The translations under genes and the position numbers were made by a program. 32,000 bases of DNA, taken from an uncultured Actinomycetes bacterium (lineage in GTDB: Bacteria > Actinomycetota > Actinomycetes > S36-B12 > CAIYMF01). Shown here piece by piece: positions 6,111 through 26,312 of this stretch (position 1 is the first letter of the stretch; the number at the start of each line of letters is the position of its first letter). The stretch spans positions 1,110,001 to 1,142,000 of the forward strand of contig CAWJMG010000003.1 in the NCBI GenBank assembly GCA_963843975.1, read 5' to 3'. A model generated the notes under the pieces. It was not told the origin of the DNA. It did no database searches and worked only from the letters and a program-made list of their open reading frames with translations.

Positions 6111-6153
6111 CACCCCGCGGAGCACCGATCGGCAGGCGTGCGGGTCGGTGCGT

Positions 6154-7014: not shown

Positions 7015-7130
7015 GCCACGACGATACGTCCGGGTCCCCCGTTCGGCAGCGTCGAATCCGATCGCCCGTCAGGCCCGGGGGTCGGGCCCCGCGTGCGCCC
7101 GTCCTCGTGAGGGTCGGGGATACTCGAGCG

Positions 7131-7727: not shown

Positions 7728-7731
7728 ACGG

Positions 7732-8640: not shown

Positions 8641-8688
8641 CCTCCTTGGTCGTCGTGCGGGGACGTTCCTTGGTGATGGAACGCCGAC

Positions 8689-8713
8689 GGGCCGGGGAAG
8701 CGTTCCCCGGCCC
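8689..8713 (-). terminator. Perfect hairpin between the PspAA gene and htpX, a possible partial terminator or processing site
   Basis: gggccggggaa / gcg / ttccccggccc forms an 11-bp perfect stem with a 3-nt loop. There is no U-tract. Confidence 0.35.
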
Positions 8714-8733
8714 GGCAGACGTACAGGTGATTC

Positions 8734-9021
8734 TCAGCCGACCGGCTGGTCCGGCACGAGGCCTTCCTCGCTCAGCATCGCGCGGATGTCGTCCTCGCTC
8801 GCGTCGGCGAACGGCAGGATCACGTCGGACTCGCGGGCCTCGTGGTCCGGCGGGCGGACGCCCGTCGTGCGCACGAAGTCGAGCAGCGCGTCGAGCGCCG
8901 GCGTCACATCGGGCTGAGGCGTCTTGAGCGCTGCCTCCAGGGCGGCGTCGAGACGGTTGAGCTCGGTGAGCGCGGACTCGGGCATCTCGTACTGCCCCTC
9001 GCCCAGGATGCGGATGAGCAC
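8734..9021 (-). CDS. PspA-associated protein, PspAA-like (95 aa)
   Basis: MLIRILGEGQYEMPESALTELNRLDAALEAAL...ESDVILPFADASEDDIRAML matches my memory of the small acidic PspAA family. It lies 39 bp downstream of pspA. Confidence 0.65.
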   Translation of the reverse strand: MLIRILGEGQYEMPESALTELNRLDAALEAALKTPQPDVTPALDALLDFVRTTGVRPPDHEARESDVILPFADASEDDIRAMLSEEGLVPDQPVG

Positions 9022-9060
9022 GTGACTACCCCTCTCGGGACGTGACTGCGGGACGGTGGA

Positions 9061-9807
9061 TCAGGCCTGCGGCTTGTCGGCCGACTCGATGGCCGGAGCA
9101 GGGGCGGATCCGCTGATCTCGCCCTTCATCGCGGCGAGCTGCGCCTCGACGTCGTTGCCGCTGGCCATGCGCTCGAGCTCGAGGGTGATCGAGTCCTTGC
9201 TCGTGCCGGTCGGGTCGTCGAGAGCGCCGGACGCGAGCAGCTCGTCGATCGCCTGGCCGCGGGCCTGCAGCTGGGCGGTCTTGTCCTCGGCCCGCTGGAT
9301 AGCCATGCCGACGTCGCCGAGCTCCTCGCTGATGCCCGAGAAGGCCTCGTTGATCTTGGTCTGCGCCTCCGCTGCGGAGTACGTGGCCTTGATCGTCTCC
9401 TTCTTGGTGCGGAAGGCCTCGACCTTGGCCTGCAGTCGCTGGCTGGCCTGGACCAGCTTCTCCTCCTGGTCGGCGAGCGCGGCGTGCTGCGTCTGCAGGT
9501 CGGTGATCTGCGTGGCGAGCCCGGAGCGACGGGTGAGCGCCTCGCGGGCGAGGTCCTCGCGGCCGCCGGCGAGCGCGGCCTTGGCCTGCCCCTCGAGCTT
9601 GGTGCTCTGCTGCTCGAGCTGGGTGATCTGGAGCTCGAGGCGCTTGCGGCTCGTGGCCACGTCGGCCACGCCGCGGCGCACCTTCTGCAGCAGCTCGAGC
9701 TGCTTCTCGTAGGAGTAGTCCAGCGTCTCGCGCGGGTCCTCTGCCTTGTCCAGGGCCTTGTTCGCCTTGGACTTGAAGATCAGGGTGAAGCGCTGCCAGA
9801 GGCCCAT
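9061..9807 (-). CDS. pspA: PspA/IM30 (phage shock protein A) family protein (248 aa)
   Basis: ATG at 9807 follows GAGGAAGGGA. The N-terminus MGLWQRFTLIFKSKANKALDKAEDPRETLDYSYEKQLELLQKVRRGVADV is followed by long coiled-coil heptads. The extended 9975 start in the track is not supported. Confidence 0.9.
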   Translation of the reverse strand: MGLWQRFTLIFKSKANKALDKAEDPRETLDYSYEKQLELLQKVRRGVADVATSRKRLELQITQLEQQSTKLEGQAKAALAGGREDLAREALTRRSGLATQITDLQTQHAALADQEEKLVQASQRLQAKVEAFRTKKETIKATYSAAEAQTKINEAFSGISEELGDVGMAIQRAEDKTAQLQARGQAIDELLASGALDDPTGTSKDSITLELERMASGNDVEAQLAAMKGEISGSAPAPAIESADKPQA

Positions 9808-9855
9808 CGTGGGCGTCCCTTCCTCGTTGCGACGTCGAACGCGTCCTGCCGTGCC

Positions 9856-9881
9856 GACGTACGACGGCACCGCGGAGTTCC
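9856..9881 (-). promoter_or_regulatory. Candidate ECF-sigma (SigE-like) promoter for pspA
   Basis: The minus strand reads GGAACT-N16-CGTC, with the AAC in the -35 and the CGT in the -10 typical of ECF promoters. It ends 48 nt upstream of the pspA ATG. The call rests on motif only. Confidence 0.3.
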
Positions 9882-10096
9882 AAAGTGCGGAGTCCCAACC
9901 TATCGGGCCGTCGACGGCCTGTCCCCCGGTCCCACCCCCAGCGGACCCCTCACGTGCGGTGAGTAGCCGCGGCACCGATCTGAGTAGTCGCTACCCATCC
10001 CCCACGCACCTGGGATCCCGAGACTCGTCCACGAGCGGCGCCACCGGGCGCCACGACAGGACCAGGGGCCGTCCGGCCCGGACCAAGGAGAGCACC

Positions 10097-12924: not shown

Positions 12925-14313
12925 TCAGGCCGCGGCCGCCACCAGCGAGCCGCTGTACATGCCCATGACGCACGCGAAGTCGTAGCGCTCCCCGGCCGCG
13001 AGGGCGGGGAGCTCGACGACGTTGGCGCCGGTCCGCAGGTTGGCCTTCCACTCCCAGCTCACCCCGCGCAGGTACGCCGCGCAGCTGAGGTCGGACACCG
13101 AGGTGATCTCCCAGCGGATCGGCAGACCGGGCTTCACCACCGTGGTCTGCGGCACGTAGCCGCGGGTGGTCTGCTCCATCGTCACCGTCTGGGTCGTCGC
13201 GCCGACGCTGACGTTTCCGGTGATCGCCGTCGGCACCTCGGTGGCCCGCTGGGTCCAGCCGAGGAGCGCTGCGGCGCCGCCGGCGTTGACCAGGGCGAAC
13301 GCCACGAGCACGGCGCCGGTGATCGCGAGCACCTGCTGCCGCACCGCGGCCGAGCCGATCCGCGGGAGCCCCGCCACGGCGAGCAGGCCGGGCGCGGTGC
13401 CGATCGCGAACACCGCCATGGTGATCCCCGCGGTGAGCGCCGAGCCGGTGGTCATGGCGTAGAGCTGCATGGCCTGGGTGAAGCCGCAGGGCAGGAAGAA
13501 CGTCAGCGCTCCGAGGGCGGCCGTGCGGGCGTCGGAGTACGGCCCTGAGGAGCGCTGCTCGACGCCGAGCGCGCGGGCGAGCGACGGCGGCAGCGACGGC
13601 GACCACGCGGCGAGACGGGGAGACACCCGCAGCAGCCGGATGCCGAGCACGGCCATCACGAGCGCCACGGCGAGCGTCAGCACCGCCTGCGCCTTCTCCG
13701 GCAGGCCGATCTGGGCGCCGATCGCTCCGAGGGCGGCTCCCAGGAGGGCGAAGCCGACGATCCGGCCCGCATGGAACACCAGATGCGGCCGCAGCGATCC
13801 CGGGCGCGGCCGGCCGTCCTCGTACCCGACGGCCGCGGCGTGCGAGGCGGACACCGCGAGCACGAGACCGCCCACCAGGGCCATGCAGGTCGAGACGCCG
13901 GCCGCCAGGCCGACGAGCAGCACGACGAGCAGGCTCCCGGACGACGTCGAGGCAGAGCCCGAGAGCAGGTCGGGCAGGCCGAAGAAGGCGACGAGCACCG
14001 CGCCGACAGCCACGACGGCGGCTGCCACGAGCGCCTCGCGCCACACCGTGACGTCCGGGCTCACCCACGGCTCACGGCCCACGCGGTAGCCGGCCCCGGC
14101 GACGGCAGCTTCGACGGACCGGTCCAGCACGGGACGGTCGACGTCGTCCGCGACGATCAGTGAGGCCTCGCCGCGGCGCACCGAGACGACGGCGGACTCC
14201 ACGCCCGGCACCTTCGTCAGCGCCTTGGACACCCGGGTCTCGCACGCGCGGCAGGTCATGCCGGCGACGGGGACACGCACCTCGTGCATCCCGGTCGTCG
14301 TCGGTCGTGCCAT
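12925..14313 (-). CDS. Three-domain metal-handling membrane protein with an N-terminal HMA domain, a TauE/DsbD_2-like polytopic core and a C-terminal cupredoxin-like domain
   Basis: ATG at 14313 sits 7 nt after GGAGG. It has the GMTCRACETRV metal-binding motif, about 6 TM helices with FFLPCGFTQAM, and a C-terminal FACVMGMYSG. Confidence 0.7.
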   Translation of the reverse strand: MARPTTTGMHEVRVPVAGMTCRACETRVSKALTKVPGVESAVVSVRRGEASLIVADDVDRPVLDRSVEAAVAGAGYRVGREPWVSPDVTVWREALVAAAVVAVGAVLVAFFGLPDLLSGSASTSSGSLLVVLLVGLAAGVSTCMALVGGLVLAVSASHAAAVGYEDGRPRPGSLRPHLVFHAGRIVGFALLGAALGAIGAQIGLPEKAQAVLTLAVALVMAVLGIRLLRVSPRLAAWSPSLPPSLARALGVEQRSSGPYSDARTAALGALTFFLPCGFTQAMQLYAMTTGSALTAGITMAVFAIGTAPGLLAVAGLPRIGSAAVRQQVLAITGAVLVAFALVNAGGAAALLGWTQRATEVPTAITGNVSVGATTQTVTMEQTTRGYVPQTTVVKPGLPIRWEITSVSDLSCAAYLRGVSWEWKANLRTGANVVELPALAAGERYDFACVMGMYSGSLVAAAA

Positions 14314-14489
14314 GCCGTCACCTCCGCCAGCGCTGATCGTCACGGTCATCATCGGCGTCCCGGGCAGCGAACGCGAGAGATCCCGCTGCGAGCGGCCGGT
14401 GTCGTCCGACACGCCCGGCGGGGCACCCACCTGGGGCGATGCGACGACCTTTGACTCCGGGCACCGGCGCGTGGTCAGGTACAGGGGCC

Positions 14490-14630
14490 CCCTACCGTGG
14501 GGGTCACAACTGAACACCCGCGCCTGACGTCCAGGGGAAGCCGGTCCGAATCCGGCGCTGAACCCGCAACCGTAGGTGGTCGACCCGTTGAGGACGGGAA
14601 CGACTGCGAGCCGGAGCACCTGGCGGGCGC
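14490..14630 (+). promoter_or_regulatory. Cobalamin (B12) riboswitch aptamer. The 5' boundary is approximate.
   Basis: The conserved core AGGGGAAGCCGGTCCGAATCCGGCGCTGAACCCGCAACCGTAGG lies at 14533-14576. The B12 box GAGCCGGAGCACCTGGC lies at 14608-14624. The element sits in a roughly 490-bp gene-free region upstream of a corrinoid salvage operon. Confidence 0.8.
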
Positions 14631-14697
14631 GAGATCGGCTCACATCCGTCGAGGTCTACGGAACGAGCCCGGACCGTCCCCCTGGTCCGACCTCTCG

Positions 14698-14741
14698 CCC
14701 CTCGCGCCCGGTCCTCACGGACCACGGCTCGAGGGGTTTTT
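14698..14741 (+). terminator. Riboswitch expression platform: an intrinsic terminator (attenuator)
   Basis: The outer stem cccctcg (14698-14704) pairs with cgagggg (14730-14736), and an inner stem ggtcc/ggacc closes a tcac loop. It is followed by TTTTT (14737-14741). The left arm 14701-14710 (ctcgcgcccg) is perfectly complementary to 14624-14633 (cgggcgcgag) at the 3' edge of the B12 box, giving an antiterminator option. Confidence 0.65.
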
Positions 14742-14801
14742 CGTCGTACGGGGAGCAGTCCGGACCACTTGGTTCGTGCCCGCTCCACCGAAAGGACCCC
14801 C

Positions 14802-16190
14802 GTGGTCACCGTCCCCTCCGGGCGCCCGCCCGCTGCTCGTCGTGCCATCGCCGGCCTCCTGGCCGCCACCGCGCTCCTGGCCTCCGCCGCGCTCGCCGCG
14901 CCGTCGGCCTCGGCCGCCACCGCCCCCGTGCAGGTCGGCCTGTTCGGCACGCAGGACCCGACGTACGACGGCGTCTTCCGCCAGTCGCTGGCCCTGCTCG
15001 CCTTCGCGGCCGCCGACCAGGCGCCGCCCGAGGAGTCGGTCGCCTGGCTGCTCGACCAGCAGTGCGCGGACGGCGGCTTCCAGGCGTTCCGCGAGGACAC
15101 GACCAAGCCGTGCACGAAGTCCGACCCCGCGAACTTCGTCGGCGAGGACTCGAACTCCACGGCGCTGGCGTCCGCGGCGCTCACGGTGCTGGGCGAGCTC
15201 GACGCCGCCGACGGCGCTCTCGCCTGGCTCGAGGGTGCGCAGAACTCCGACGGCGGCTTCCCCTACTTCCTCGGCGGCACGTCCGACGTGAACTCCACTG
15301 CCATCGCGCTGATGGCGACCAACGCCGTCGGGCTGGCCCCCACCCAGGTGACCTCCGGCGGCGTCTCGGCCGCCGACTACCTCGTCGGCCTGCAGGTCGG
15401 CTGTCCGGGCGTGCCCACGAACGAGGACGGCGGATTCGCCTACGCCGACTTCTCCGCCGGCACCGCGAACGACGCGGCCACGGTGCAGGCGGCGCTCGCC
15501 ATCACCGGAGCTGCGCTCCCGTTCGTCGCGGACGCCCCGTCGCTCGACATCCCCCGCGTGGACTGCCCCGCACCGACCGTGACGCCCACCGCGCCCGCGG
15601 TCGCCGGTGCCGCCGCTCCGGCGGCGGCGCTGCCCGTGACCCCGGCCGAGCTGGCGGGCGGCTACATCGCGCGCACGCTCGAGACCTACGGCAACGCCAT
15701 CCCCCAGCTCGACTTCACCACGGGAGAGCGCAAGCCCGGCACCGTCTCGGCCGGCGACACCGCGTGGGCCGTGCTCGCCCTGTCGGCGATCGGAGTCGGC
15801 GGCACCCAGCGCGACGCCGCCCTCGACGTGCTGCTCGCCGAGGTCGGTACCGCCCCGGCGGCCAAGACCGCCGCGAAGGCCGTCTCGGACGAGGCGCCCG
15901 GGCTGCTCTCGCTCGCCGCGCTCGCGGTCGTGTCGGCCGACGGCAAGCCGGCGACCGCGGCCGACCTCGTCGCGAGGGTCGGCGCGACGATGCGCACGGC
16001 TCCCGCCTCGGTGACGCCGACACCGACGCCCACGACCGGCACGCCGACCCCGTCCGGCACGAGCGACGGCGGCCTCGCGCCCTCGGGCGCCTCGCCGCTC
16101 ACGCCCGGCCTCGCAGGTGCCGGTGCGCTCCTGCTCCTCCTCGGGTCCGTGGCGCTCGGGCTGACCCGCCGCCAGGGCAGCCACTCGTGA
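14802..16190 (+). CDS. Cell-surface prenyltransferase/squalene-cyclase-repeat (alpha/alpha toroid) protein with a C-terminal sorting-type anchor (462 aa)
   Basis: GTG at 14802 sits 5 nt after AAAGGA. The signal peptide contains RR (AARRAIAGLLAATALLASAALAAPSASA). It has three Q/N-xx-DGGF repeats (QQCADGGFQAF, AQNSDGGFPYF, TNEDGGFAYADF) and a T/P linker. The C-terminus is LAPSG plus a hydrophobic stretch plus RRQGSHS. Confidence 0.75.
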   Translation: MVTVPSGRPPAARRAIAGLLAATALLASAALAAPSASAATAPVQVGLFGTQDPTYDGVFRQSLALLAFAAADQAPPEESVAWLLDQQCADGGFQAFREDTTKPCTKSDPANFVGEDSNSTALASAALTVLGELDAADGALAWLEGAQNSDGGFPYFLGGTSDVNSTAIALMATNAVGLAPTQVTSGGVSAADYLVGLQVGCPGVPTNEDGGFAYADFSAGTANDAATVQAALAITGAALPFVADAPSLDIPRVDCPAPTVTPTAPAVAGAAAPAAALPVTPAELAGGYIARTLETYGNAIPQLDFTTGERKPGTVSAGDTAWAVLALSAIGVGGTQRDAALDVLLAEVGTAPAAKTAAKAVSDEAPGLLSLAALAVVSADGKPATAADLVARVGATMRTAPASVTPTPTPTTGTPTPSGTSDGGLAPSGASPLTPGLAGAGALLLLLGSVALGLTRRQGSHS

Positions 16191-17125
16191 CCGACGCACG
16201 CCGGGGGACGGCGGCCGCACGTGCGGCCGCCGTCCTCGGCGTGCTCGGGTCCGTCCTCGTCGCGTTGCTCGTCGCGGCCCCGGCCGCCGAGGCCGCGTCG
16301 TACCGCTACTGGACCTACTGGTGGGGGCAGCCCGCCGCCACCTCCTGGACCTTCGCCCAGCTCGGCCCCGCGAGCGACCGCCCGAAGGACGGCGCGGTGC
16401 TCGGCTGGAGGTTCGCCGTCACGACCGAGGCGGGCGGCAAGAAGTCGCCGCGCGCGTCGCTGCCGTTCGACTCCCTCTGCCCGTCGCTCGCCGGGACACC
16501 TGCCGGCGCGGGCGAGAAGCGCGTCGCGGTCGTCGTCGACTACGGCACGGCGTCCGACGCTCCCCCGGGCGAGGCGCCTCCGGGCGGAGGCACCGTGCGC
16601 GTCGAGTGCGTGACGGTCGCCGCCAACGCCACCGGCGTCGCCCTCCTCAACGCGGCCGGCGTCTCGCTGCGGTTCGGCGACAACGGGCTCGTGTGCGGGA
16701 TCGACCGCTATCCGCGCACCGAGTGCGCGGCGGTCGTGGCCGACCCGACGCCGTCCCCGAAACCCACCACGGCCGCCCCCAAGCCCCAGCCCAGCACCGC
16801 CCGACCGACCGCGTCGGCGACCGGTGGCGGCAGCGTCGCCAGCAGCGCGGCGGCGGGAACGGCCTCAGCCGGTGAGCAGTCGTCGTCGGCCGCGACCACC
16901 GGGAGCAGCAGCGCCGTCCCCGAGGCGACGACGGCGTCGCCTGCGCCCTCGACGTCGGTCGACCCGACGACCGAGGTGCCGCTCCCGGTCAGCTCCGGGG
17001 CCCCCGTGGCCTCGGGCACCGAGGGCGGTTCCGGCGGCAGCCCCATGGCGCCGGTCGTCGGGGTCGCGCTCGTCGCCGCCGTCGGCATCGGAGCCTGGTG
17101 GACAGCGCGCGGGAGGCGGGCATGA
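16187..17125 (+). CDS. Stalked, membrane-anchored extracytoplasmic protein (312 aa), reminiscent of the SCO2322-type family that accompanies such ECF operons
   Basis: The GTG at 16187 overlaps the upstream stop (GTGA). It has a signal peptide ending AAEA|AS and a roughly 150-aa domain (YRYWTYWWGQ, DGAVLGWRF, GLVCGIDRYP, 4 Cys). A roughly 100-aa S/T/P/A stalk follows, then a C-terminal TM plus RGRRA. Confidence 0.7.
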   Translation: MTDARRGTAAARAAAVLGVLGSVLVALLVAAPAAEAASYRYWTYWWGQPAATSWTFAQLGPASDRPKDGAVLGWRFAVTTEAGGKKSPRASLPFDSLCPSLAGTPAGAGEKRVAVVVDYGTASDAPPGEAPPGGGTVRVECVTVAANATGVALLNAAGVSLRFGDNGLVCGIDRYPRTECAAVVADPTPSPKPTTAAPKPQPSTARPTASATGGGSVASSAAAGTASAGEQSSSAATTGSSSAVPEATTASPAPSTSVDPTTEVPLPVSSGAPVASGTEGGSGGSPMAPVVGVALVAAVGIGAWWTARGRRA

Positions 17126-18279
17126 GCCGCACCGCGCACGCCCTCGGCAGCCGCGCGCTCCCGCGCTGGACCCACCCCGTCGCCTGGTGGGTCTGGGCCC
17201 TCGGGCTCGCCACCGCCGTCAGCCGCACCACCAACCCGCTGCTGCTCGCACTGATCGTCGCGGTGGCCGGCTGGGTCGTGGCCCGTCGTCGCCCCGACGC
17301 GCCCTGGGCCAGGTCGTACGCGGTCTTCCTCCGGCTCGGCCTCGTGGTGATCGCGATCCGCGTGGCGTTCGCGGTGGTGCTCGGCTCGGGCGCCGGTACG
17401 ACCGTGCTCCTGCAGCTGCCCGAGATCCCGCTCCCCGACTGGTTCGCCGGCGTGAGCCTCGGCGGCCCGGTCACCCTCGAGGAGCTGCTCGCCGCCGTCT
17501 ACCAGGGCATGGTGCTCGCCGCGCTGCTCGCCTGCGTCGGCGCTGCGAACTCGCTGGCGAGCCCCGCCCGGCTACTCGCGTCGGTGCCGGCCGCGCTCTA
17601 CGAGGTGGGCGTCGCCGTCGTCGTCGCCATGACCTTCGCCCCGCAGCTCGTTCAGGACGTCGGCCGCGTGCGCACGGCTCGGCGCCTGCGCGGTCGGCCG
17701 GACCGCGGCGCCCGCGCGCTCGCGGGGTCGGTGCTGCCGGTGCTCGAGGGTGCGCTCGAGCGGGCGGTGGACCTCGCCGCGGCGATGGACTCGCGCGGCT
17801 ACGGCCGTACGGGCGCTCAGTCGCCCGCCCTGCGACGTACGTCGGCCGCACTCCTGCTGCTGGGCCTGCTCGGCATGTGCCTCGGCGTCTACGCGCTGCT
17901 CGACACGGGCACGGCCGGTGCTCTCGGCCTGCCGCTGCTCGTGCTCGGCGTGGCCGCCGGGACGATCGGCGTGCTGCTCGCGGGCCGGCGCTCGATCCGC
18001 ACGCGCTACCGCCCCGACCCGTTCGCGCTGCCCGAGTGGATCGTCGCGGGCACCGGGGTGCTCGTCGCCGTCGTCGTGGTCGCCGTCTCGATCACCGACC
18101 CCGCCGTCCTCGTCGGCCCGGTGGCGCCGCCGGCCTGGCCGGCCCTCCCCCTGCTGCCGGTCGCAGCGATCCTGCTCGCCGCCCTGCCGGGTCTCGTCAC
18201 GCCCCCGCCCCCCGGCATGATGACCGTCCAGCCCGTCCCGGCTCGTCGGGACCGCGAGCCCGAGGGGGTGGCCGCGTGA
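17122..18279 (+). CDS. ECF transporter transmembrane (T) component, CbiQ/EcfT family, with an extra C-terminal TM region (385 aa)
   Basis: The ATG at 17122 overlaps the upstream stop (ATGA), with GGGAGG upstream. The coupling-helix Arg-Gly motifs RTARRLRG and AMDSRGYG are present. There are about 3 additional TM helices after residue 270. Confidence 0.8.
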   Translation: MSRTAHALGSRALPRWTHPVAWWVWALGLATAVSRTTNPLLLALIVAVAGWVVARRRPDAPWARSYAVFLRLGLVVIAIRVAFAVVLGSGAGTTVLLQLPEIPLPDWFAGVSLGGPVTLEELLAAVYQGMVLAALLACVGAANSLASPARLLASVPAALYEVGVAVVVAMTFAPQLVQDVGRVRTARRLRGRPDRGARALAGSVLPVLEGALERAVDLAAAMDSRGYGRTGAQSPALRRTSAALLLLGLLGMCLGVYALLDTGTAGALGLPLLVLGVAAGTIGVLLAGRRSIRTRYRPDPFALPEWIVAGTGVLVAVVVVAVSITDPAVLVGPVAPPAWPALPLLPVAAILLAALPGLVTPPPPGMMTVQPVPARRDREPEGVAA

Positions 18280-19907
18280 TCCGCTTCGACGACGTCACCG
18301 TCACCTACGACGGCTCCCCCGCACCGGTGCTGAGCCACGTCGACCTCCACATTCCCGAGGGCGAGCTCGTCCTCGTCGTCGGTCGCACGGGCACCGGCAA
18401 GTCGACGCTCCTGCGCTGCGTCAACGGCCTGGTGCCGCACTTCACCGGCGGCACCCTGCGCGGCCGCGTCACCGTGGCCGGCCGCGACACGCGCACGCAC
18501 CCGCCCCGCGAGCTCGCCGACGTCGTGGGCGTCGTGCCGCAGGACCCGCTCAGCGGCTTCGTCACCGACATCGTCGAGGACGAGCTCGCCTACGGCATGG
18601 AGTCGATCGGCCTCGCACCGGACGTCATGCGTCGCCGGGTCGAGGAGACGCTCGACCTGCTCGGCCTCAACGACCTGCGCAACCGCGCGCTGCGCTCGCT
18701 GTCCGGCGGGCAGCGCCAGCGGGTGGCGATCGGCGCCGTCCTCACCACGCACCCGAAGGTGCTCGTGCTCGACGAGCCCACATCGGCCCTCGATCCCGGT
18801 GCGGCAGAAGAGGTCCTGGCCGCGCTGCAGCGGCTCGTGCACGATCTCGGCGTCACCGTGCTGCTCGCCGAGCACCGGCTCGAGCGGGTCGTGCAGTACG
18901 CCGACCGCGTCATCGTCGTCCCCGGCGGAGGCGAGCCCCTCGTCGTCGGCACGCCCGCCGAGGTGATGGTGACGGCTCCCGTCGCTCCCCCGGTGGTGGA
19001 GCTCGGGCGCCTCGCCGGGTGGTCGCCGCTGCCGCTGTCCGTGCGCGACGCCCGCCGCGCCGCCGGTCCTTTGCGCGAGCGGCTGCAGCCGCTCGTCGAG
19101 GACGCCGTCCTGCGCTCGCGCTCCTCGCTGCACGTCCTGTCCGGCACGCCGGCGGTATCCGCGCTCGACGTCGTCGTGCGCCACGGCTCGGTGGCCGCGC
19201 TCCGCGGTGTCACGGTGGCCGCGGACAAGGGCGAGATCGTCGCCGTCATGGGGCGCAACGGCGCCGGCAAGTCGACGCTGCTCTCGACCTTCGTCGGCCT
19301 CCACTCCCCCGCCGCCGGGTCGGCGACCGTGGGCGGTGCGACCTCCGCGGCCCTGCGCGGTCGAGAGCTCGTGACACGCGTGGGACTGGTGCCGCAGGAG
19401 CCCACCGACGTGCTGGTGGCCGACCGGGTGGGCGACGAGTGCGCGGCCGCCGACCGCGACTCCGGCGTCGCGCCCGGCACGGCCCGCGCGATCCTCGACC
19501 GGGTCGCACCGGGCGTGGACGACGACACGCACCCGCGCGACCTCAGCGAGGGGCAGCGCCTCGCCCTCGCCCTCGCCGTCGTCCTCGCCGCCCACCCGCC
19601 CGTGCTGCTGCTCGACGAGCCGACGCGCGGCCTGGACTACGCCGCGAAGCGGCGGCTCGTCGCCGTCCTGCGCGAGCTGGCTGCCGACGGGCACTGCGTG
19701 ATCCTCGCGACGCACGACGTCGAGCTCGCGGCAGAGGTGGCGACGCGCGTCGTCGTCCTCGCGGAGGGCGAGGTCGTCGCGGACGGCCCGGCCACCGAGG
19801 TCGTCGTGGGGTCGCCGATGTTCGCCCCGCAGGTGAGCAAGGTGCTCGCACCGCAGCCCTGGCTCACGGTGGCAGAGGTCGCCGCCGCACTGGTAGCGGC
19901 GTCGTGA
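18276..19907 (+). CDS. ECF transporter ATPase, a fused tandem A-A' protein (543 aa)
   Basis: The GTG at 18276 overlaps the upstream stop (GTGA). The first ABC cassette has GRTGTGKST / LSGGQRQRV / VLVLDEPTSALD. The second has GRNGAGKST / LSEGQRLAL / VLLLDEPTRGLD. Confidence 0.9.
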   Translation: MIRFDDVTVTYDGSPAPVLSHVDLHIPEGELVLVVGRTGTGKSTLLRCVNGLVPHFTGGTLRGRVTVAGRDTRTHPPRELADVVGVVPQDPLSGFVTDIVEDELAYGMESIGLAPDVMRRRVEETLDLLGLNDLRNRALRSLSGGQRQRVAIGAVLTTHPKVLVLDEPTSALDPGAAEEVLAALQRLVHDLGVTVLLAEHRLERVVQYADRVIVVPGGGEPLVVGTPAEVMVTAPVAPPVVELGRLAGWSPLPLSVRDARRAAGPLRERLQPLVEDAVLRSRSSLHVLSGTPAVSALDVVVRHGSVAALRGVTVAADKGEIVAVMGRNGAGKSTLLSTFVGLHSPAAGSATVGGATSAALRGRELVTRVGLVPQEPTDVLVADRVGDECAAADRDSGVAPGTARAILDRVAPGVDDDTHPRDLSEGQRLALALAVVLAAHPPVLLLDEPTRGLDYAAKRRLVAVLRELAADGHCVILATHDVELAAEVATRVVVLAEGEVVADGPATEVVVGSPMFAPQVSKVLAPQPWLTVAEVAAALVAAS

Positions 19908-20776
19908 CCGCCACCGCGCTGCCGCCGGCAGCGAACGGCACGGTCGACGTCTACGTCGTCCGCTCGGGGCGCCCCAGCGCCGTGCGCGTCGGCCGCCGCT
20001 CGCTCGTCGCGATGATCCTCGCGAGCGCCGTCGGCCTGCTCGCCTTCGCCTGGCCGCTCATGGCCCCCGCGGGGTCGGCGATCGTGGCGCACGCGGCCGA
20101 TGCCCCGTGGCTGTTCGCGGCGATGCTGCCGCTGGTCCTCGCCGTCGTCCTGGCCGAGGTGGCCGACGGCGGGCTCGACGCCAAGGGCGTCGCCCTGCTC
20201 GGCGTGCTCTCCGCCGTCGCGGCAGCCCTGCGGCCGTTCGGCAGCGGGCACGCGGGGTTCGAGCCCATGTGGATCGTGCTGGTGCTCGGTGGCCGCGCGC
20301 TCGGCCCCGGCTTCGGCTTCTGCCTCGGCTCGGTCGGCATGTTCGCCTCGGCCATGGTCACCGGCGGCGTGGGCCCGTGGCTGCCGTTCCAGATGGTCGG
20401 CGCCGCGTGGGTCGGCGTGGGTGCCGGCCTGCTTCCGCGCGCGACCGGCCGACGCGAGCTCGGACTGCTCGCCGGCTATGCGGCCTTCGCCTCGCTCGCC
20501 TACGGATTCCTGCTCAACCTGTGGTTCTGGCCGTTCATCACGGCCGACCAGGGCTTCGCCCCCGGCCTGTCGTACGTTCCCGGCGCACCGGTGCTCGAGA
20601 ACCTGCAGCACTGGATCCTGTTCAGCCTCGCCACCTCGCTCGGCTACGACATCCCGCGCGCCGTGCTCACCGTGGTGCTCGTGCTCGTCGCGGGGCGGCC
20701 GGTGCTCACCGCGCTGCGGCGAGCGTCGAGACGGGCCGCGTTCGAGGTGCCGGTTCGGTTCGAGGACGCCCGCTGA
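19904..20776 (+). CDS. ECF transporter substrate-capture (S) component, unusually large (290 aa). The substrate is inferred to be a corrinoid.
   Basis: The GTG at 19904 overlaps the upstream stop (GTGA). The protein is polytopic and Gly/Ala/Leu-rich with about 7-8 hydrophobic segments. It lacks the CbiM-type MHIxEG N-terminus. Its position completes a dedicated T-A-S set. Confidence 0.65.
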   Translation: MTATALPPAANGTVDVYVVRSGRPSAVRVGRRSLVAMILASAVGLLAFAWPLMAPAGSAIVAHAADAPWLFAAMLPLVLAVVLAEVADGGLDAKGVALLGVLSAVAAALRPFGSGHAGFEPMWIVLVLGGRALGPGFGFCLGSVGMFASAMVTGGVGPWLPFQMVGAAWVGVGAGLLPRATGRRELGLLAGYAAFASLAYGFLLNLWFWPFITADQGFAPGLSYVPGAPVLENLQHWILFSLATSLGYDIPRAVLTVVLVLVAGRPVLTALRRASRRAAFEVPVRFEDAR

Positions 20777-22188
20777 TGCAGGTGCTGATGCTCGGCACCG
20801 GCGCGGCCGACGGATGGCCGAACCCCTTCTGCACGTGCGCCTCCTGCGACTGGGCACGATCGACGGGCACCGTCCGCACCACGACCTCCGCGCTCGTCGA
20901 CGACGCACTGCTGCTCGACTGCGGACCCGACGCACCGCGCCAGGCCTCCCGCGCCGGGCGCAGCCTCGAGCAGCTGCGCGCGGTGCTCGTGACGCACGCG
21001 CACCCCGACCACCTCGATCCGTCCGCACTGCTCGCGCGCTCGTGGGCGCGACCGGCGTCGGCGCTGCAGGTCGTCGGCCCGCGCTCGGTCATGGCCGCGT
21101 GCGAGCACTGGATCGGTCCGGACGACTCCGTGGCGCTCACCGAGGTGTCGCCCGGCGACGTCCTCACGATCGACGGGTACGTCGTGCGCGTGCTCGCGGC
21201 CGCGCACGACGTCGGCCACGACCCCCTGACGGCCGACGCGGTGCTGTACGACGTCACCGCGCCCGACGGTGCGCGCCTGCTCTACGCGACCGACACCGGG
21301 CCGCTCCCGCAGGAGACCGTGGACGTGCTGCACGGCGCGGCGCTCGACCTGCTGCTCGTCGAGGAGACGTTCGGCGCCCAGGCCGACCACGGCACGGGCC
21401 ACCTCGACCTCGCGACCCTGCCGCGCGAGCTGGCTCGGCTGCGCGAGTGCGGTGCGCTCACCGGCACGACCGACGTCGTCGCCGTCCACCTGAGCCACCA
21501 CAACCCGCCGGGCCCCGAGCTCGCGCGCGTGCTGGCGCCCTGGGGAGTCCGTGTGGTCGACGACCTCGCCGAGCTGCGGGTCGGGCCGTCGGAGTCGGTG
21601 TCGCGCCCCACGACGCCGCGACGGACGCTGCTGCTGGGAGGCGCACGCTCGGGCAAGTCGCACGAGGCCGAGCGGATGCTCGCGGCCACCGCCGATGTCG
21701 AGTACGTCGCCACCGGCGGCGCCCGCGACGGCGACGCGGAGTGGGCCGAGCGCGTCGCCCTGCACCGCGCCCGTCGACCGGCCACGTGGTCGACCGTCGA
21801 GACGCTGGACGTCGCGAAGCTGCTGCAGTCGCCCGGCCCGTCGGCGGTGCTCGTCGACTGCCTCTCCCTGTGGCTCGCGGGCGTGCTCGACTCCGCCGGC
21901 ATGTGGGAGCACGCCGCAGGCTCCCCGGGCCGAGGCGAGGCGCTGTCACATGTCGACGTCGAGGTCGCTGCCCTGGTCGACGCCGTCCGGCGCACGTCGC
22001 GCACGGTCGTGCTGGTCTCCAACGAGGTCGGTAGCGGCGTCGTGCCGGAGCACGAGTCGGGCCGGCTCTACCGCGACCTGCTCGGCCGCCTCAACGCCCG
22101 CGTCGCCGCCGAGTGCGACGCTGTGTCCCTCGTCGTCGCAGGCACCGTCCTGCCCCTCACGCCCGGAAGCAGCGCAGCAGCACCGTGA
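20776..22188 (+). CDS. cobU: Fusion of a PhnP-like metallo-beta-lactamase-fold phosphodiesterase domain with adenosylcobinamide kinase / adenosylcobinamide-phosphate guanylyltransferase (CobU/CobP), 470 aa
   Basis: The N-terminal domain has LGTGAADGWPNPFCTCASCDWAR (the Cys cluster seen in E. coli PhnP), VLVTHAHPDHLD (HxHxDH), YATDTG, GHLDL and AVHLSHH. The C-terminal domain has LLLGGARSGKSHEAE (P-loop), LVDCLSLWL and VSNEVGSGVVPEHESGRLYRDLLGRLN. Confidence 0.8.
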   Translation: MQVLMLGTGAADGWPNPFCTCASCDWARSTGTVRTTTSALVDDALLLDCGPDAPRQASRAGRSLEQLRAVLVTHAHPDHLDPSALLARSWARPASALQVVGPRSVMAACEHWIGPDDSVALTEVSPGDVLTIDGYVVRVLAAAHDVGHDPLTADAVLYDVTAPDGARLLYATDTGPLPQETVDVLHGAALDLLLVEETFGAQADHGTGHLDLATLPRELARLRECGALTGTTDVVAVHLSHHNPPGPELARVLAPWGVRVVDDLAELRVGPSESVSRPTTPRRTLLLGGARSGKSHEAERMLAATADVEYVATGGARDGDAEWAERVALHRARRPATWSTVETLDVAKLLQSPGPSAVLVDCLSLWLAGVLDSAGMWEHAAGSPGRGEALSHVDVEVAALVDAVRRTSRTVVLVSNEVGSGVVPEHESGRLYRDLLGRLNARVAAECDAVSLVVAGTVLPLTPGSSAAAP

Positions 22189-23271
22189 CCCTCGACCTCG
22201 ACGCCCTCGTCGCCCGCATCGAGCTGCCGGACGACGACGCCCGCGCCGCGGCAGCGGAGCGGCAGACGCGGCTCACCAAGCCGACCGGGGCGCTCGGGCG
22301 GCTCGAGGAGCCTCTCCCTGTGGCTGTGCGCGGTGCAGGGCGTGTGCCCGCCGCGGCCGCTCGAGCGCGTGCGCGTGATCGTCCTGGCCGGCGACCACGG
22401 CGTCGCCCGCACTGCCGCCACGAGCGCGTACCCGCCCGAGGTCACCGCGCAGATGGTGCTCAACTTCCTCGCCGGCGGCGCCGCCGTGAACGTGCTCGCG
22501 CGGCAGAACGGCGCGACCGTCCGCGTCGTCGACGTCGCGGTCGACGTCGACTGGGCCGAGCTCGGCGCGACGGTGCCCGAGGACGTCGTGCGCGACAAGG
22601 TACGGCGCGGCAGCGGCTCGATCGACCGCGAGGACGCGATGACGCGCGAGGAGACGGAGGCGGCGTTCGCGCTCGGCGTCCGCATCGCCGACGAGGAGGT
22701 CGATGCCGGCGCCGACCTCCTCATCCCCGGCGACATGGGCATCGGCAACACGACGCCAGCCGCCGTCATCACCGGGCTGTACACGAACCAGGACGCCGCG
22801 TCCGTCGTCGGGCGCGGCACCGGGATCGACGACGCGACGTGGATGCGCAAGACCGCGGCGGTCCGCGACGCGATGCGTCGCGGCCGCGACGCCAAGGGCG
22901 ACCCGATCGCCCTGCTGGCGACCGTCGGCGGCGCCGACATCGCCGCCATGACCGGCCTGCTCATCGGCGCAGCCGCCCGGCGGACACCCGTGCTGCTCGA
23001 CGGCGTCGTGTCGTGCGCAGCCGCGCTGGTGGCGCAGCGGATGTCGTTCCGCGCGCGGGAGTGGTGGCTCGCCGGCCACCTGTCGACCGAGCCGTCCGCG
23101 AAGGCCGCGCTCGAGCGCCTGCGGCTCGACCCGCTCGTCGACTACGGCCTGCGCCTCGGTGAGGGCACCGGCGCCCTGATCGCGCTGCCGGTCCTGGCCG
23201 CCGCCGGCGCGACGCTCCGCGAGATGGCGACCTTCGACGAGGCCGGCGTCTCGGACAGGGAGCAGCCCTGA
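22185..23271 (+). pseudogene. cobT: Nicotinate-nucleotide--dimethylbenzimidazole phosphoribosyltransferase CobT. The frame is disrupted by one extra base at about 22311 as sequenced.
   Basis: The GTG at 22185 overlaps the cobU stop (GTGA). The first frame gives [42 protein letters not shown]. The next frame continues [16 protein letters not shown]...VLAGDHGV...GDMGIGNTT...LRLGEGTGA to the stop at 23271. The repaired length is 361 aa, as for Rv2207. Confidence 0.85.
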
Positions 23272-24080
23272 TGCCCGACTTCGTGCGCCTCGCGCTCGGC
23301 ACGTTCACGATCCTGCCGGTGCCGCCGCCGCGCACAGTGGACCGCACGACGGCGCGACGGGCGATGCTCCTCGCGCCGTTCGTCGGAGCCCTGCTCGCGA
23401 TGGTCGCCGCCGGCGTCATCCTGTTCGTCCGGCTCTCGCCGCTCGGCCACCGCACGCACATCGTCGTGACGCTCGTGGCCGCCACGCTCGCGATCGTCAC
23501 GCTCGCGGTCCTCACCCGCGGCCTCCACCTCGACGGCCTCGCGGACACCGCCGACGCGCTCGGGGTGAAGGGCGACGACGACGGCGCGCGGGAGCGCCGG
23601 CTCGCGGTGATGCGCACCCCGGAGATCGGGGCGTTCGGCGCCGTCACGCTGATCCTGGTGCTGATCGTCCAGATCCTCGCCCTCACCGCGTGCGACCTCG
23701 CCGGCCGCGGCACGGTCAGCCTGGTCACGGCCTGCGTGGTCGGCCGCCTCGCGGTGGTGTGGGCCTGCACCCGGCTCGCGCCGTCCGCCCGGCCCGACGG
23801 CCTCGGGGCCACGGTCGCCGGCACCGTGCCGGTGGTGGCCGCCGCGCTGCTCACCGTCGCCGCCGGGCTGCTCGCGGTGTGGCTCGGCCTCGGCGACGAC
23901 GACGGCGGCCGCCGGCTCGCTGCCGCGCTCGTGATCGCGACGATCGGCGGCCTCGCGGTCGGCGCCCTGGTCGTGCTCCGCGCCGTACGCCGGTTCGGCG
24001 GCATCACCGGCGACGTCCTCGGCGCCACGGTCGAGCTCACCTTCACCGCCGTCCTGCTGGCGCTCGCCCTGCTCCCCTGA
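23271..24080 (+). CDS. cobS: Adenosylcobinamide-GDP ribazoletransferase (cobalamin synthase) CobS
   Basis: The ATG overlaps the cobT stop (TGATG). It is a polytopic protein with the LHLDGLADTADAL motif. Confidence 0.85.
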   Translation: MPDFVRLALGTFTILPVPPPRTVDRTTARRAMLLAPFVGALLAMVAAGVILFVRLSPLGHRTHIVVTLVAATLAIVTLAVLTRGLHLDGLADTADALGVKGDDDGARERRLAVMRTPEIGAFGAVTLILVLIVQILALTACDLAGRGTVSLVTACVVGRLAVVWACTRLAPSARPDGLGATVAGTVPVVAAALLTVAAGLLAVWLGLGDDDGGRRLAAALVIATIGGLAVGALVVLRAVRRFGGITGDVLGATVELTFTAVLLALALLP

Positions 24081-24221
24081 CCCGCTGGTACGGCCGGGAT
24101 GTCCACGATGTGAGAGCGGACCCCCTCGTGTGGCGGAGGTCACCGTCCCAGCGGGCCCGTCGTGGCCGAGGTCACGCTCCGCCAGGCAAGGGCAGGCTCA
24201 CCTTCTTGTCAGAATTTCCCC

Positions 24222-24494
24222 ATGACTGCGACCACCGACGACATGCGCGAGTTCCAGCTCGACTTCGACGCCGAGCAGCCCGCTGCTCCGGCCGCCCCCG
24301 CCGTCCCGGCGTACCTGACCTCCGCCGCCCGCCGTCGCGCCGCCGACGCCGAGCAGGGCGACGGCTTCATCAAGGGCATGTACGCCCTCGCGATGGTCGG
24401 CCTCGTGATCTCGCTCGGTGTCTTCGGCCTCGTGACGTACGACAACTCGACCGCCCAGCTGGGCGAGCAGACGTCGGTCGCCACCACCCCGTAG
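24222..24494 (+). CDS. Small single-pass membrane protein (90 aa), hypothetical
   Basis: GC3 bias is strong from the ATG at 24222. There is one TM (MYALAMVGLVISLGVFGLVTY) and no SD. CAGAAT lies 6 nt upstream of the ATG, which suggests a leaderless transcript. Confidence 0.5.
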   Translation: MTATTDDMREFQLDFDAEQPAAPAAPAVPAYLTSAARRRAADAEQGDGFIKGMYALAMVGLVISLGVFGLVTYDNSTAQLGEQTSVATTP

Positions 24495-24529
24495 CACGCA
24501 CGCCCCGCGGCCACCCGCCGCGGCCCCAC

Positions 24530-24563
24530 GACAGGCGCCTCCCCACCCGGGACGGCGCCTGTC
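24530..24563 (+). terminator. Hairpin after the small membrane protein gene
   Basis: gacaggcgcc / 14-nt loop / ggcgcctgtc forms a 10-bp perfect stem. There is no U-tract. Confidence 0.4.
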
Positions 24564-24596
24564 GCGCGTCCGGAGGCACGGGGTCACGATGACCCC

Positions 24597-25154
24597 ATGG
24601 ACTCCTCGCTCTGGAACGACCTCGTGGTGCCCGGCATCCCGCTGCTGGAGAAGGTGCTCCGCACCGTGCTCGTGTACGTCGCGATCGCCGTTCTCCTGCG
24701 GCTCGTCGGCAAGCGCAACCTCGCCCAGCTCAACACGTTCGACCTCGTGGTCGTGCTGCTGCTGTCGAACGTCGTCCAGAACGCGATCATCGGCCCGGAC
24801 GACTCGCTGGTCGGAGGCCTCATCGGCGCCGCAGTGCTGCTCGGCATCAACGCCGGCGTCGTGCGACTGGCGGCCCGCAACGACACCCTCGCGCGGTGGA
24901 TCGACGGCAGCCCCACCGTCATCGTCCGCGACGGCGAGTACGACGACGACGCGCTGCGGAGGATGGCCCTGCGCCGAAACGACGTCGCGGACGCGCTCCT
25001 CAAGCAGGGGGCGCACGTGTCCGACGTCGCGACGGCCCAGCTCGACCCGAACGGCGCCATCACGTTCAACTACCGCGAGGGCGCGGAGCCGGCCACGAAG
25101 GCCGACATCCAGAGGCTCATCGACCGGATCGACGCCCTGGCCGCGCGGGGCTGA
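24597..25154 (+). CDS. DUF421 (YetF-like) membrane protein (185 aa)
   Basis: The N-terminal TM region has GKRNLAQLNTFDLVVVLLLSNVVQNAI. The soluble C-terminal domain has TVIVRDGEYDDDALRRMALRRNDVADALLKQG. Confidence 0.7.
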   Translation: MDSSLWNDLVVPGIPLLEKVLRTVLVYVAIAVLLRLVGKRNLAQLNTFDLVVVLLLSNVVQNAIIGPDDSLVGGLIGAAVLLGINAGVVRLAARNDTLARWIDGSPTVIVRDGEYDDDALRRMALRRNDVADALLKQGAHVSDVATAQLDPNGAITFNYREGAEPATKADIQRLIDRIDALAARG

Positions 25155-25178
25155 GCCAGACGGGTCGGTCGGGTCGGG

Positions 25179-26312
25179 TCAGCGGGTCGAGCGGTCCACG
25201 AACGGCGGCGTCGTCACCGCGAAGCGCGACGCCCGGCCGCGGACGTCGACGAGCACCTCGTCGCCGTCGACGAGGCCGGCCGAGGTGTCGAGCAGCGCCA
25301 GGGCGATGCCGACCTTGAGCGTCGGCGAGAACGTGCCGGACGTGATCTCTCCCAGCGGCGCGCCGTCGACCGACGAGACGGTCATGTGCGGCCGCGGGAT
25401 GCCGCGCTCGAGCGAGACGAGGCCGACCGAGCGACGGGCCGGGCCCGCCTCCTTCTCGGCGACGAGCGCGTCGCGGCCGTGGAAGGCAGGCTTCTTCCTG
25501 CCGACCGCCCAGCCCGCGCGCGCCTGCACCGGGCTGATCGACAGCGAGAGGTCCTGCCCGTGCAGCGGGTAGCCCATCTCGGTGCGCAGGGTGTCGCGGG
25601 CGCCGAGGCCGCACGCCCGGATGTCGTCGGGTGCGCCCGCCTCGAGGATCGCGTCCCACACGGCGGCGGCCGCGGCCCACGGCACGACGAGCTCGTAGCC
25701 GTGCTCGCCGGTGTAGCCGGTGCGGCAGACCAGGAGGTCGGTGCCGGCCAGCGTCGCCGGGACGAACGCCATGTACTCGAGGGCCGAGGGCAGGCCCAGC
25801 GCGTCGAGCAGCGCGGCCGAGCGCGGCCCCTGCACGGCCAGGACGGCGTGCTCGTGGTGCAGGTTGGTCACGGTGACGCCCTCGGGCGCGGCCTCGGCCA
25901 GGATCCGCACGACCTCGGTGGTGTTCGAGGCGTTCGGGATGAGGAAGACGTCGTCCGGCCCGTGCAGGTAGGCGATGAGGTCGTCGACGACGCCGCCGCT
26001 CGCGTCGCACAGCAAGGTGTACTGCGCCTTGCCGGGGGCGATCCGCTCGAGGCTGTTGGTCAGCACCGAGTCGAGGAACGCCGCCGCACCGGGGCCGGTC
26101 ACGGAGGCCTTGCCGAGGTGCGAGACGTCGAAGACGCCGACCCTCTCGCGCACGGCCGTGTGCTCGGCCACGACGCCGCCGCCGGCGTACTCGAGCGGCA
26201 TCGACCAGCCGCCGAAGTCGCCGAGCTTCGCGCCGAGCGCGAGGTGGCGGTCGTGGAGCGGGGACAGCAGCGGTGTGGAGGCGTCGGTCACGCACCGCAC
26301 CGTACCGGCCAC
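25179..26312 (-). CDS. gcvT: Glycine cleavage system aminomethyltransferase GcvT
   Basis: It contains [46 protein letters not shown] and [20 protein letters not shown]. An alternative start is GTG 26291. Confidence 0.9.

Follow-up and report, generated by a model that had tools for sequence, protein, structure and literature searches.

Two of the closest described counterparts of the locus analysed here are established or proposed importers of the energy-coupling factor (ECF) class. ECF-CbrT of Lactobacillus delbrueckii takes up both cobalamin and cobinamide at the expense of ATP (Santos et al. 2018, PMC5997447). In acI actinobacteria without B12 synthesis, an ECF module lying behind cobalamin/adenosylcobalamin (AdoCbl) riboswitches has been proposed as the B12 importer (Kang et al. 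2017, PMC5301498), and some Planktophila strains make cobalamin from cobinamide (2025 study, PMC12817590). Here we describe a locus in a 32,000-nucleotide stretch of DNA from an uncultured actinomycete (contig CAWJMG010000003.1, positions 1,110,001 to 1,142,000; the whole stretch is referred to as the window), in which a cobalamin riboswitch is followed by eight genes on the same strand. They encode two secreted proteins, A and B, the T, fused A-A' and S components of an ECF transporter, a two-domain CobU protein, CobT and CobS. We think it probable that these genes form a cobalamin-repressed operon with which a Gram-positive actinomycete, a relative of Longivirga (Sporichthyaceae), scavenges and completes corrinoids.

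As in the acI module, the transporter genes of the window lie behind a cobalamin riboswitch, and two metagenome-assembled genomes (MAGs) of Nanopelagicales (L007 and L010) carry the same eight-gene locus as the window. The published acI account differs in describing "an ECF module" only, as a proposal without experimental test, and does not include A and B, a fusion of CobU to a metallo-beta-lactamase (MBL) domain or a linkage to cobT-cobS (PMC5301498). ECF-CbrT is likewise an ECF-type ABC importer, and the window's transporter is predicted to do the same job; however, CbrT belongs to group II, shares the housekeeping ECF module and has no partner surface proteins, whereas in the window T, A-A' and S are dedicated components with neighbouring genes (group I), a single protein combines both ATPases, T has extra helices and S is without detectable sequence similarity to CbrT. 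The last three genes correspond to the CobU-CobT-CobS(-CobC) pathway of Salmonella enterica in enzyme families and in order of action, but CobU of the window carries an N-terminal PhnP-like MBL domain, there is no CobC-type histidine phosphatase in the window, and the genes are joined to an importer operon behind a riboswitch. In Bacteroides, riboswitch-controlled loci combine the TonB-dependent transporter BtuB with the beta-propeller BtuG, an extracellular protein that captures B12 with high affinity. This is the same logic of a membrane transporter served by surface capture, although in a Gram-negative envelope and with a BtuG fold that is unrelated to A, an alpha/alpha toroid, or to B; BtuG/BtuB systems find mention in PMC12713380. 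Riboswitch regulons that couple a B12 transporter to salvage genes are already known, as is the riboswitch-ECF pairing in acI. Undescribed are the constant partnership of A and B with this ECF transporter, the separate family to which S belongs, the union with nucleotide-loop assembly in an eight-gene locus, and the conserved MBL domain on CobU.

The riboswitch leader and the extent of the probable operon

An earlier sequence-only reading of the window had placed all eight genes under one cobalamin riboswitch and suggested a covariance search with RF00174 as a check. In an Rfam scan this model gives a significant full-length match (model positions 1-189; 35.0 bits, the gathering score being 31.5; E 1.7e-05) directly upstream of gene A and on its strand, at a distance of 160 nt; it is the sole Rfam match in the 32-kb window. 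Between the aptamer and gene A is an expression platform resembling an intrinsic terminator (Table 1), with a predicted hairpin energy of -30.8 kcal/mol (RNAfold). The stem is bulged; a simple consensus scan overlooked this terminator, which is revealed by folding alone. A possible anti-terminator is given by the 5' arm of the hairpin (CTCGCGCCC, 14701) and its complement GGGCGCGAG (14625), which belongs to the P1 3' strand of the aptamer; the alternative duplex between these two strands has a predicted energy of -28.5 kcal/mol, as against -19.3 kcal/mol for P1.

The leader thus plausibly has the classic layout of a transcription-terminating OFF switch, with a predicted terminator/anti-terminator platform. 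When AdoCbl is scarce, the P1 3' strand would pair with the 5' arm of the hairpin and RNA polymerase would read through; when the ligand closes P1, the hairpin and its U5 tract would form and transcription would stop before the GTG of gene A at 14802. Read-through would yield one mRNA of roughly 9.3 kb, on which the eight cistrons may be translationally coupled through overlaps of 4 nt or 1 nt. The same 45-nt hairpin and U5 tract are found in Longivirga aurantiaca. Most Streptomyces relatives do not have the U-tract terminator, so that their expression platform may differ. An nhmmer profile made from five riboswitch copies detected one homologous riboswitch in each of 75 fetched loci, located upstream of A and on its strand, and the Rfam gathering score was reached in seven of the 14 loci checked (L013, L017, L059, L083, L016, L046 and L082).

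All seven start/stop overlaps that had been read from the sequence could be located (GTGA at 16187, ATGA at 17122, GTGA at 18276, GTGA at 19904, TGATG at 20774, GTGA at 22185 and TGATG at 23269). The description of eight overlapping cistrons needs one amendment: seven of the eight intervals are intact open reading frames (ORFs), free of internal stops and each matching its expected family, but cobT is frame-shifted in the sequence as given. Similarly, the gene content of surface proteins A and B, the ECF components, CobU, CobT and CobS stands, except that "CobU" is a two-domain protein with an MBL domain. Neither the frameshift of cobT nor the MBL domain of 280 aa joined to CobU had been noticed.

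The junctions were also described as unusually tidy. Four-base overlaps are common in high-GC actinobacterial operons, and seven out of seven is for this reason tidy rather than extraordinary; what holds is that the overlap geometry recurs at orthologous junctions. Across dozens of related loci, 4-nt overlaps are present almost everywhere at the T/A-A' and A-A'/S junctions, and the overlap of the S start with the A-A' stop is kept in nearly all loci. It was further deduced that an internal promoter would find no space at the overlaps; this conclusion is unsound, since promoters can sit within coding sequence. One transcript for all eight genes is plausible.

Table 1. Coordinates of the riboswitch leader, the eight operon genes and neighbouring features in the window
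Feature	Position	Strand	Assignment or remarks
Cobalamin riboswitch aptamer	14508-14641	+	Rfam RF00174 (clan CL00101)
P1 5' strand of aptamer	14517	+	CCCGCGCC
P1 3' strand of aptamer	14625	+	includes GGGCGCGAG
Expression platform, intrinsic-terminator-like	14698-14741	+	bulged G+C-rich hairpin 14698-14736, then U5 14737-14741
Ribosome-binding site of gene A	14790-14796	+	GAAAGGA
Gene A, secreted alpha/alpha-toroid protein, 462 aa	14802-16190	+	GTG start
Gene B, SCO2322-family protein, 312 aa	16187-17125	+	NCBIfam SCO2322_fam
ECF T component, CbiQ family, 385 aa	17122-18279	+	Pfam CbiQ
Fused ECF A-A' ATPase, 543 aa	18276-19907	+	two ABC domains, Pfam ABC_tran twice
ECF S component, 290 aa	19904-20776	+	Pfam ECF_trnsprt
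Two-domain MBL-CobU protein, 470 aa	20776-22188	+	MBL about aa 1-280 (20776-21615), CobU aa 284-460
cobT, nicotinate-nucleotide:5,6-dimethylbenzimidazole phosphoribosyltransferase	22185-23271	+	interrupted by extra C at 22311
cobS, adenosylcobinamide-GDP ribazoletransferase, 269 aa	23271-24080	+	polytopic membrane protein, Pfam CobS
Small single-transmembrane protein, 90 aa	24222-24494	+	
HMA-DsbD_2 protein	12925-14313	-	
PspA/IM30 cluster	5496-9975	-	

In the nearest named relative, Longivirga aurantiaca, the flanks, the set of eight genes and the way in which they overlap all agree with the window. When one genome of each GTDB species was scanned by pattern, at least 575 stretches were identified that encode a relative of B, of which the best 80 were fetched. 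Searches with the window proteins (tblastn) place A-B-T-AA-S in unchanged order and orientation in nearly all loci of sufficient length. Related loci keep the order T-AA-S, and A and B are adjacent, behind the riboswitch and ahead of T-AA-S, in all full-length loci examined. The extent of the module was counted in the 62 loci that extend 7.5 kb or more rightward from B. All eight genes are present in 13, all of them from outside Streptomyces (Nanopelagicales, Acidothermaceae and unclassified actinomycete MAGs), while 40, from Streptomyces and Kitasatospora only, have five genes and end at S (the SCO2321-SCO2325 arrangement); the remaining nine, from mixed lineages, are other variants. As Streptomyces carries the uptake module without cobUTS, the uptake and completion halves are separable.

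Some variants have unusual gene content. In a Nanopelagicales MAG (L015, 8776-15423), the riboswitch, A and B precede a gene of the beta-lactamase family and one resembling aspartate-semialdehyde dehydrogenase, after which stand CobU, CobT and CobS; this CobU is unfused (187 aa), and ECF genes are absent from the 2.5 kb between B and cobU. In four other loci (L035, L044, L066 and L067) a CobT-like gene (40-53% identity) directly follows S, with MBL-CobU and CobS undetected.

Separability also gives some weight to a division of the eight genes into two or more transcription units, the riboswitch controlling A to S only and MBL-cobU-cobT-cobS being transcribed from a promoter within the S coding region. 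We regard this as rather unlikely. It would accord with the 40 Streptomyces and Kitasatospora loci that have no cobUTS downstream of the riboswitch-A-B-T-AA-S module, with CobU/CobT gaps of 81-124 nt in two eight-gene relatives and S/MBL gaps of up to 15 nt in some, and with the compatibility of intragenic promoters with overlapping genes. Moreover, cobT-cobS beside gcvT/pepA/lpd/sucB is an old actinobacterial neighbourhood, as in the Rv2207-Rv2215 layout of M. tuberculosis. The junction on which the division depends is nevertheless a close one: S and MBL-cobU share a TGATG without any spacer in both the window and Longivirga, and at the other eight-gene loci they overlap or are at most 15 nt apart. 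A simple consensus scan of 14200-25300 found no sigma-70-like site or terminator inside the operon, which is weak evidence in actinobacteria.

Two surface proteins and a dedicated ECF transporter

Gene A has sub-threshold matches to Pfam Prenyltrans and SQHop_cyclase, and scores 195.9 bits on the NCBIfam equivalog model SCO2321_fam (NF053823), below its cut-off of 300. Judged by similarity and position, it is clearly a relative of SCO2321, in the same genomic place as the Streptomyces proteins and outside the equivalog threshold. The AlphaFold2 (AF2) model of A (mean predicted local distance difference test, pLDDT, 84.7) has drimenyl-diphosphate synthase and squalene-hopene cyclase as its top Foldseek matches (E 3e-06), together with prenyltransferase beta subunits, and a profile of 46 homologues matches squalene-hopene cyclase 2sqc with an E of 1e-19. 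A thus shares its fold and QW-type repeats with the toroids of squalene-hopene cyclase and other class II terpene cyclases, but differs from them in being a single toroid-sized protein that is secreted and wall-anchored, and in reading N-D-A-A at the position of the cyclase DxDD motif, as far as a weak alignment can tell. The class II acid motif appears to be lost, and it is unlikely that A acts as an enzyme on isoprenoids.

The N-terminus of A is a signal peptide and its C-terminus has the form of a sortase-type sorting signal, LAPSG followed by a hydrophobic segment and RRQ. Homologues have LPDTG, LSPTG, LAPTG or LPPTG at the same position, so that L[AP]x[TS]G is kept in the family; Pfam Gram_pos_anchor is matched by 7 of the 46 homologues, and the window protein itself reaches 20.1 against a cut-off of 30 on strep_LAETG. 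This pattern indicates that A is a putative sortase-anchored wall protein. Twin-arginine pairs are seen in the signal peptides of both A (AARRAIAGLL; window 14802-14920) and B (DARRGTAAAR; window 16187-16300), R5 being nearly invariant across the B family, and Tat-dependent export of folded A and B is a possibility.

Gene B matches NCBIfam SCO2322_fam (NF040672) over nearly the whole profile (positions 1-143 of 144; 146.7 bits against a cut-off of 85), and its homologues carry Pfam PF28005. A signal peptide is followed by a beta-rich domain of about 145 aa, a Pro/Thr/Ser-rich linker and a C-terminal transmembrane anchor. In the family alignment four cysteines of this domain are invariant, and it contains a YRYWTYW motif. 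AF2 models its core at a pLDDT above 90, and the PDB holds no fold or sequence match to it (Foldseek and profile search). The family comprises 630 clusters at 50% identity. Both the A and the B family are named by NCBI and are uncharacterised.

Two other ideas about the pair were considered and rejected. The first is a split transcobalamin, with A as the alpha-domain and B as the DUF4430 beta-domain. There is no Pfam match to Cobalamin_bind or DUF4430, at E values up to 1, in 46 members of the A family and 44 of the B family; no transcobalamin is among the top Foldseek matches of A, which are terpene cyclases and prenyltransferases, Foldseek returns nothing for B, and profile searches of the PDB agree. 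The second is the occurrence of Rosetta-stone fusions of A and B. Two apparent A-B fusions among public protein sequences, P0389 (664 aa) and P0455 (730 aa), contain both domains, but their junctions consist of Arg-rich out-of-frame sequence and B retains its own signal peptide; they are frameshift or gene-call artefacts.

The three genes that follow encode, on the basis of their families and adjacency, a dedicated group I ECF transporter. T matches Pfam CbiQ (31 bits, cut-off 25) and has an Arg-containing coupling motif, AMDSRGY, at residue 224. It is unusually long, with about four extra predicted transmembrane helices C-terminal of the CbiQ domain, an extension that is kept in relatives. 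The A-A' protein has two ABC_tran matches (182.8 bits); its best NCBIfam models, ECF_ATPase_1 and ECF_ATPase_2 (308.8 and 295.4 bits), are just under their equivalog cut-offs, as expected because it is a fusion. S has a single Pfam match, to the generic ECF_trnsprt model (36.4 bits, cut-off 30.7). Neither the S protein nor a profile of 22 S sequences matches any solved S component, CbrT included, at E values up to 10, and the idea of S as a relative of CbrT was rejected for want of similarity at both levels. The S family is distinct from CbrT, to which it may be analogous in function.

Could the transporter import something other than a corrinoid, either cobalt, as CbiMNQO does, or 5,6-dimethylbenzimidazole (DMB) or alpha-ribazole, as predicted for CblT, with A and B serving that substrate? 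The CblT and CbiMNQO assignments reportedly go back to Rodionov 2009, and B12 riboswitches also control cobalt and lower-ligand transporters. In addition, T falls in the Pfam family named CbiQ, S is unrelated to CbrT, the operon includes a DMB-using CobT, and the module is present in Streptomyces, which are generally regarded as B12 producers. We nevertheless hold such a substrate to be improbable. Pfam CbiQ takes in ECF T components of many specificities, S matches only the generic model, and the linkage to CobU, which acts on cobinamide, speaks for a corrinoid. A pair of large extracellular proteins is also more typical for the capture of a large and scarce ligand. Furthermore, acI genomes that lack B12 synthesis carry the riboswitch-ECF module, and B12-controlled cobalt import would be pointless there (PMC5301498).

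A separate doubt concerns A and B alone, which might be co-transcribed envelope proteins with a role in freeing corrinoids from carriers, in wall organisation at the transporter or in something unrelated, leaving specificity to S. Against a binding role, neither protein is similar to any fold or family known to bind B12, an extracytoplasmic binding protein is not normally required by ECF transporters (PMC5997447), and the L015 locus has riboswitch, A and B without adjoining ECF genes. On balance we find this view of A and B the less convincing one, with perhaps a quarter of the weight. The A-B pair stands between the riboswitch and T-AA-S in every full-length locus examined, both proteins are extracytoplasmic by signal peptide and anchor and have conserved disulfide-type cysteines, and the cyclase acid motif is apparently lost in A (in the weak alignment mentioned above). 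There is also precedent for surface receptors that work with importers of B12 or haem, namely BtuG and the Isd proteins, the latter being the surface partners of the LhaSTA ECF haem system.

In the corrinoid-scavenging scheme that we prefer, A would be exported and fixed to the cell wall by sortase as a non-catalytic, squalene-cyclase-like toroid, and B would be held at the membrane on its long Pro/Thr-rich stalk. As their location and context suggest, A and B would bind extracellular corrinoids and pass them to S, and the group I T/A-A'/S transporter would then import the presumed corrinoid with ATP.

Nucleotide-loop assembly and the MBL domain of CobU

The sixth gene matches Pfam Lactamase_B_2 (2e-19) in its N-terminal part and CobU (PF02283; 4e-51, 173.2 bits against 27) in its C-terminal part, the latter being marginally below the cut-off of NF004469 (159.4 against 161). 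The closest solved protein to the MBL domain is PhnP (3g1p, E 6.5e-07); on TIGR03307 the domain scores 45, far under the cut-off of 272. An N-terminal CxCxxC cluster, HxHxDH, H144, D173 and H209 are invariant in 28 homologues, and these conserved residues suggest a PhnP-like hydrolase that is catalytically intact. The MBL-CobU fusion is widespread in actinomycetes (2045 matches, including Rhodococcus and Prescottella), where it is annotated as CobU only. Two such loci were compared (L085, 8001-8933; L086, 10001-11347): the Prescottella fusion gene comes after rhodanese and Cys/Met-metabolism (PF01053) genes and not among cob genes, and Rhodococcus sp. SGAir0479 retains the MBL part alone (310 aa) at the syntenic position. 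The genomic context of the domain in these two genera is uninformative on its function.

The interval of cobT is 1087 nt long and thus not divisible by 3. Translation from the GTG at 22185 gives a CobT N-terminus for about 41 codons, then Arg-rich out-of-frame sequence up to a stop at 23162, and the body of CobT is in the +1 frame (ORF 22333-23271). This body matches Pfam DBI_PRT (3.8e-114), as do the N-terminal 52 aa, and exceeds the cut-off of TIGR03160 (366.6 against 319.3). The lesion is a single extra C at 22311 (GAGGAG[C]CTCTCC). If it were real in the strain, cobT would be a pseudogene and the nucleotide-loop branch would be decaying, as the early end of the frame from 22185 might be read. 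This is very unlikely, given that the Logan assembly made from run ERR12037365 (L084) differs from the window at position 22311 alone in 5,069 nt and encodes an intact CobT of 361 aa. The insertion also lies within a run of C, presumably a typical site of consensus error, the +1 frame downstream is a full-scoring CobT without further lesions, and CobT is intact in Longivirga (360 aa). Because the independent assembly lacks the extra C, we regard it as probably a consensus error in the deposited assembly. CobS, with seven hydrophobic segments, reaches 153.1 bits on Pfam PF02654 (cut-off 23.2) and is slightly below the cut-off of TIGR00317 (100 against 110).

These enzyme families suggest how an imported corrinoid would be completed. 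Once adenosylated by an unlinked enzyme, adenosylcobinamide (AdoCbi) would be converted by CobU to AdoCbi-GDP, CobT would make alpha-ribazole-5'-phosphate, and CobS would join the two. The sequence-only reading had called this a complete late pathway, which is overstated: a CobC-type phosphatase, a corrinoid adenosyltransferase and a source of DMB are not in the window. Its remark that the window has no genes for corrin-ring synthesis is borne out, in that no corrin-ring, adenosyltransferase, BluB or CobC-type phosphatase families are found among the other window ORFs scanned.

The MBL domain would, more speculatively, most likely supply a missing phosphoester-hydrolysing step, either the final dephosphorylation of the CobC type or the conversion of foreign cobamides to cobinamide-phosphate by a cleavage like that of CbiR. 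Of the cobamide-remodelling enzymes CbiR and CbiZ, the former is a metal-dependent hydrolase whose gene lies next to cobamide genes; it cuts the nucleotide loop and so yields cobinamide-phosphate, on which the guanylyltransferase half of CobU acts (Mok et al. 2020, PMC7733943). By context only, CbiR is a possible functional analogue of the window's MBL domain; it is, however, an AP-endonuclease-2 TIM barrel, whereas the window domain has an MBL fold closest to PhnP.

Downstream of the operon are a YetF-like gene, gcvT, pepA, lpd and a gene for an E2 acyltransferase. The small protein encoded 141 nt 3' of cobS has no family match, and has a counterpart at the same position in Longivirga aurantiaca (L002, 18043-18315). 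There is no clear terminator after cobS, and this gene could therefore be a ninth co-transcribed gene. Upstream, a divergent gene encodes a heavy-metal-associated (HMA) domain joined to a membrane domain of the DsbD_2 type. This neighbour is shared by Longivirga, and its product may handle metal beside an operon for a cobalt cofactor. Farther away is a PspA/IM30 cluster with PspAA, PspAB and two M48 peptidases, which is syntenic with Longivirga and unrelated to the operon.

Weighing the corrinoid reading and its biological meaning

A number of points weigh against the operation of the locus as a corrinoid-scavenging operon. The riboswitch exceeds the Rfam gathering threshold by only 3.5 bits. 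In Pfam, Foldseek and PDB profile searches A and B are unrelated to known cobalamin binders, and S shows no sequence similarity to CbrT or to any other solved S component. A literature search on SCO2321-SCO2325 returned nothing relevant, with no paper found on the function of SCO2321 or SCO2322. The MBL-CobU fusion occurs also outside B12 gene clusters (Prescottella, Rhodococcus), cobT is frame-shifted in the sequence as deposited, and the phosphatase, adenosyltransferase and DMB source named above were not found in the window. Finally, Streptomyces, generally regarded as B12 producers, keep the module from the riboswitch to S; it therefore occurs beyond auxotrophs, and its substrate could conceivably be cobalt or something else related to B12.

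A broader proposal can be made for the locus as a whole, although we put it forward tentatively and consider it somewhat less probable than not. Taken jointly, A and B would be a new class of Gram-positive extracellular corrinoid receptor, A being a wall-anchored, catalytically dead terpene-cyclase-like toroid and B a Cys-rich domain of new fold tethered to the membrane, which feeds a new S family and provides the main entry of B12 in Streptomyces, acI/Nanopelagicales and related actinomycetes; the MBL domain would be either the missing actinobacterial phosphatase for AdoCbl-5'-phosphate or alpha-ribazole-phosphate, or a new cobamide-remodelling phosphodiesterase.

B12-type cofactors are needed by most microbes and made by few, and their acquisition in Gram-positive actinomycetes is poorly known. 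The lineages concerned here include acI/Nanopelagicales, which are dominant in freshwater bacterioplankton, as well as Streptomyces. With at least 575 relatives, the locus offers testable candidates, namely the surface proteins A and B, an ECF importer of its own whose S component belongs to a new family and, in some lineages, a fixed link to the completion of cobinamide. The conserved hydrolase domain that actinobacterial CobU carries could provide a step now missing from the assembly or remodelling of the B12 nucleotide loop. Current understanding is not overturned by these findings; rather, the locus extends the known logic of riboswitch regulons to uncharacterised parts.

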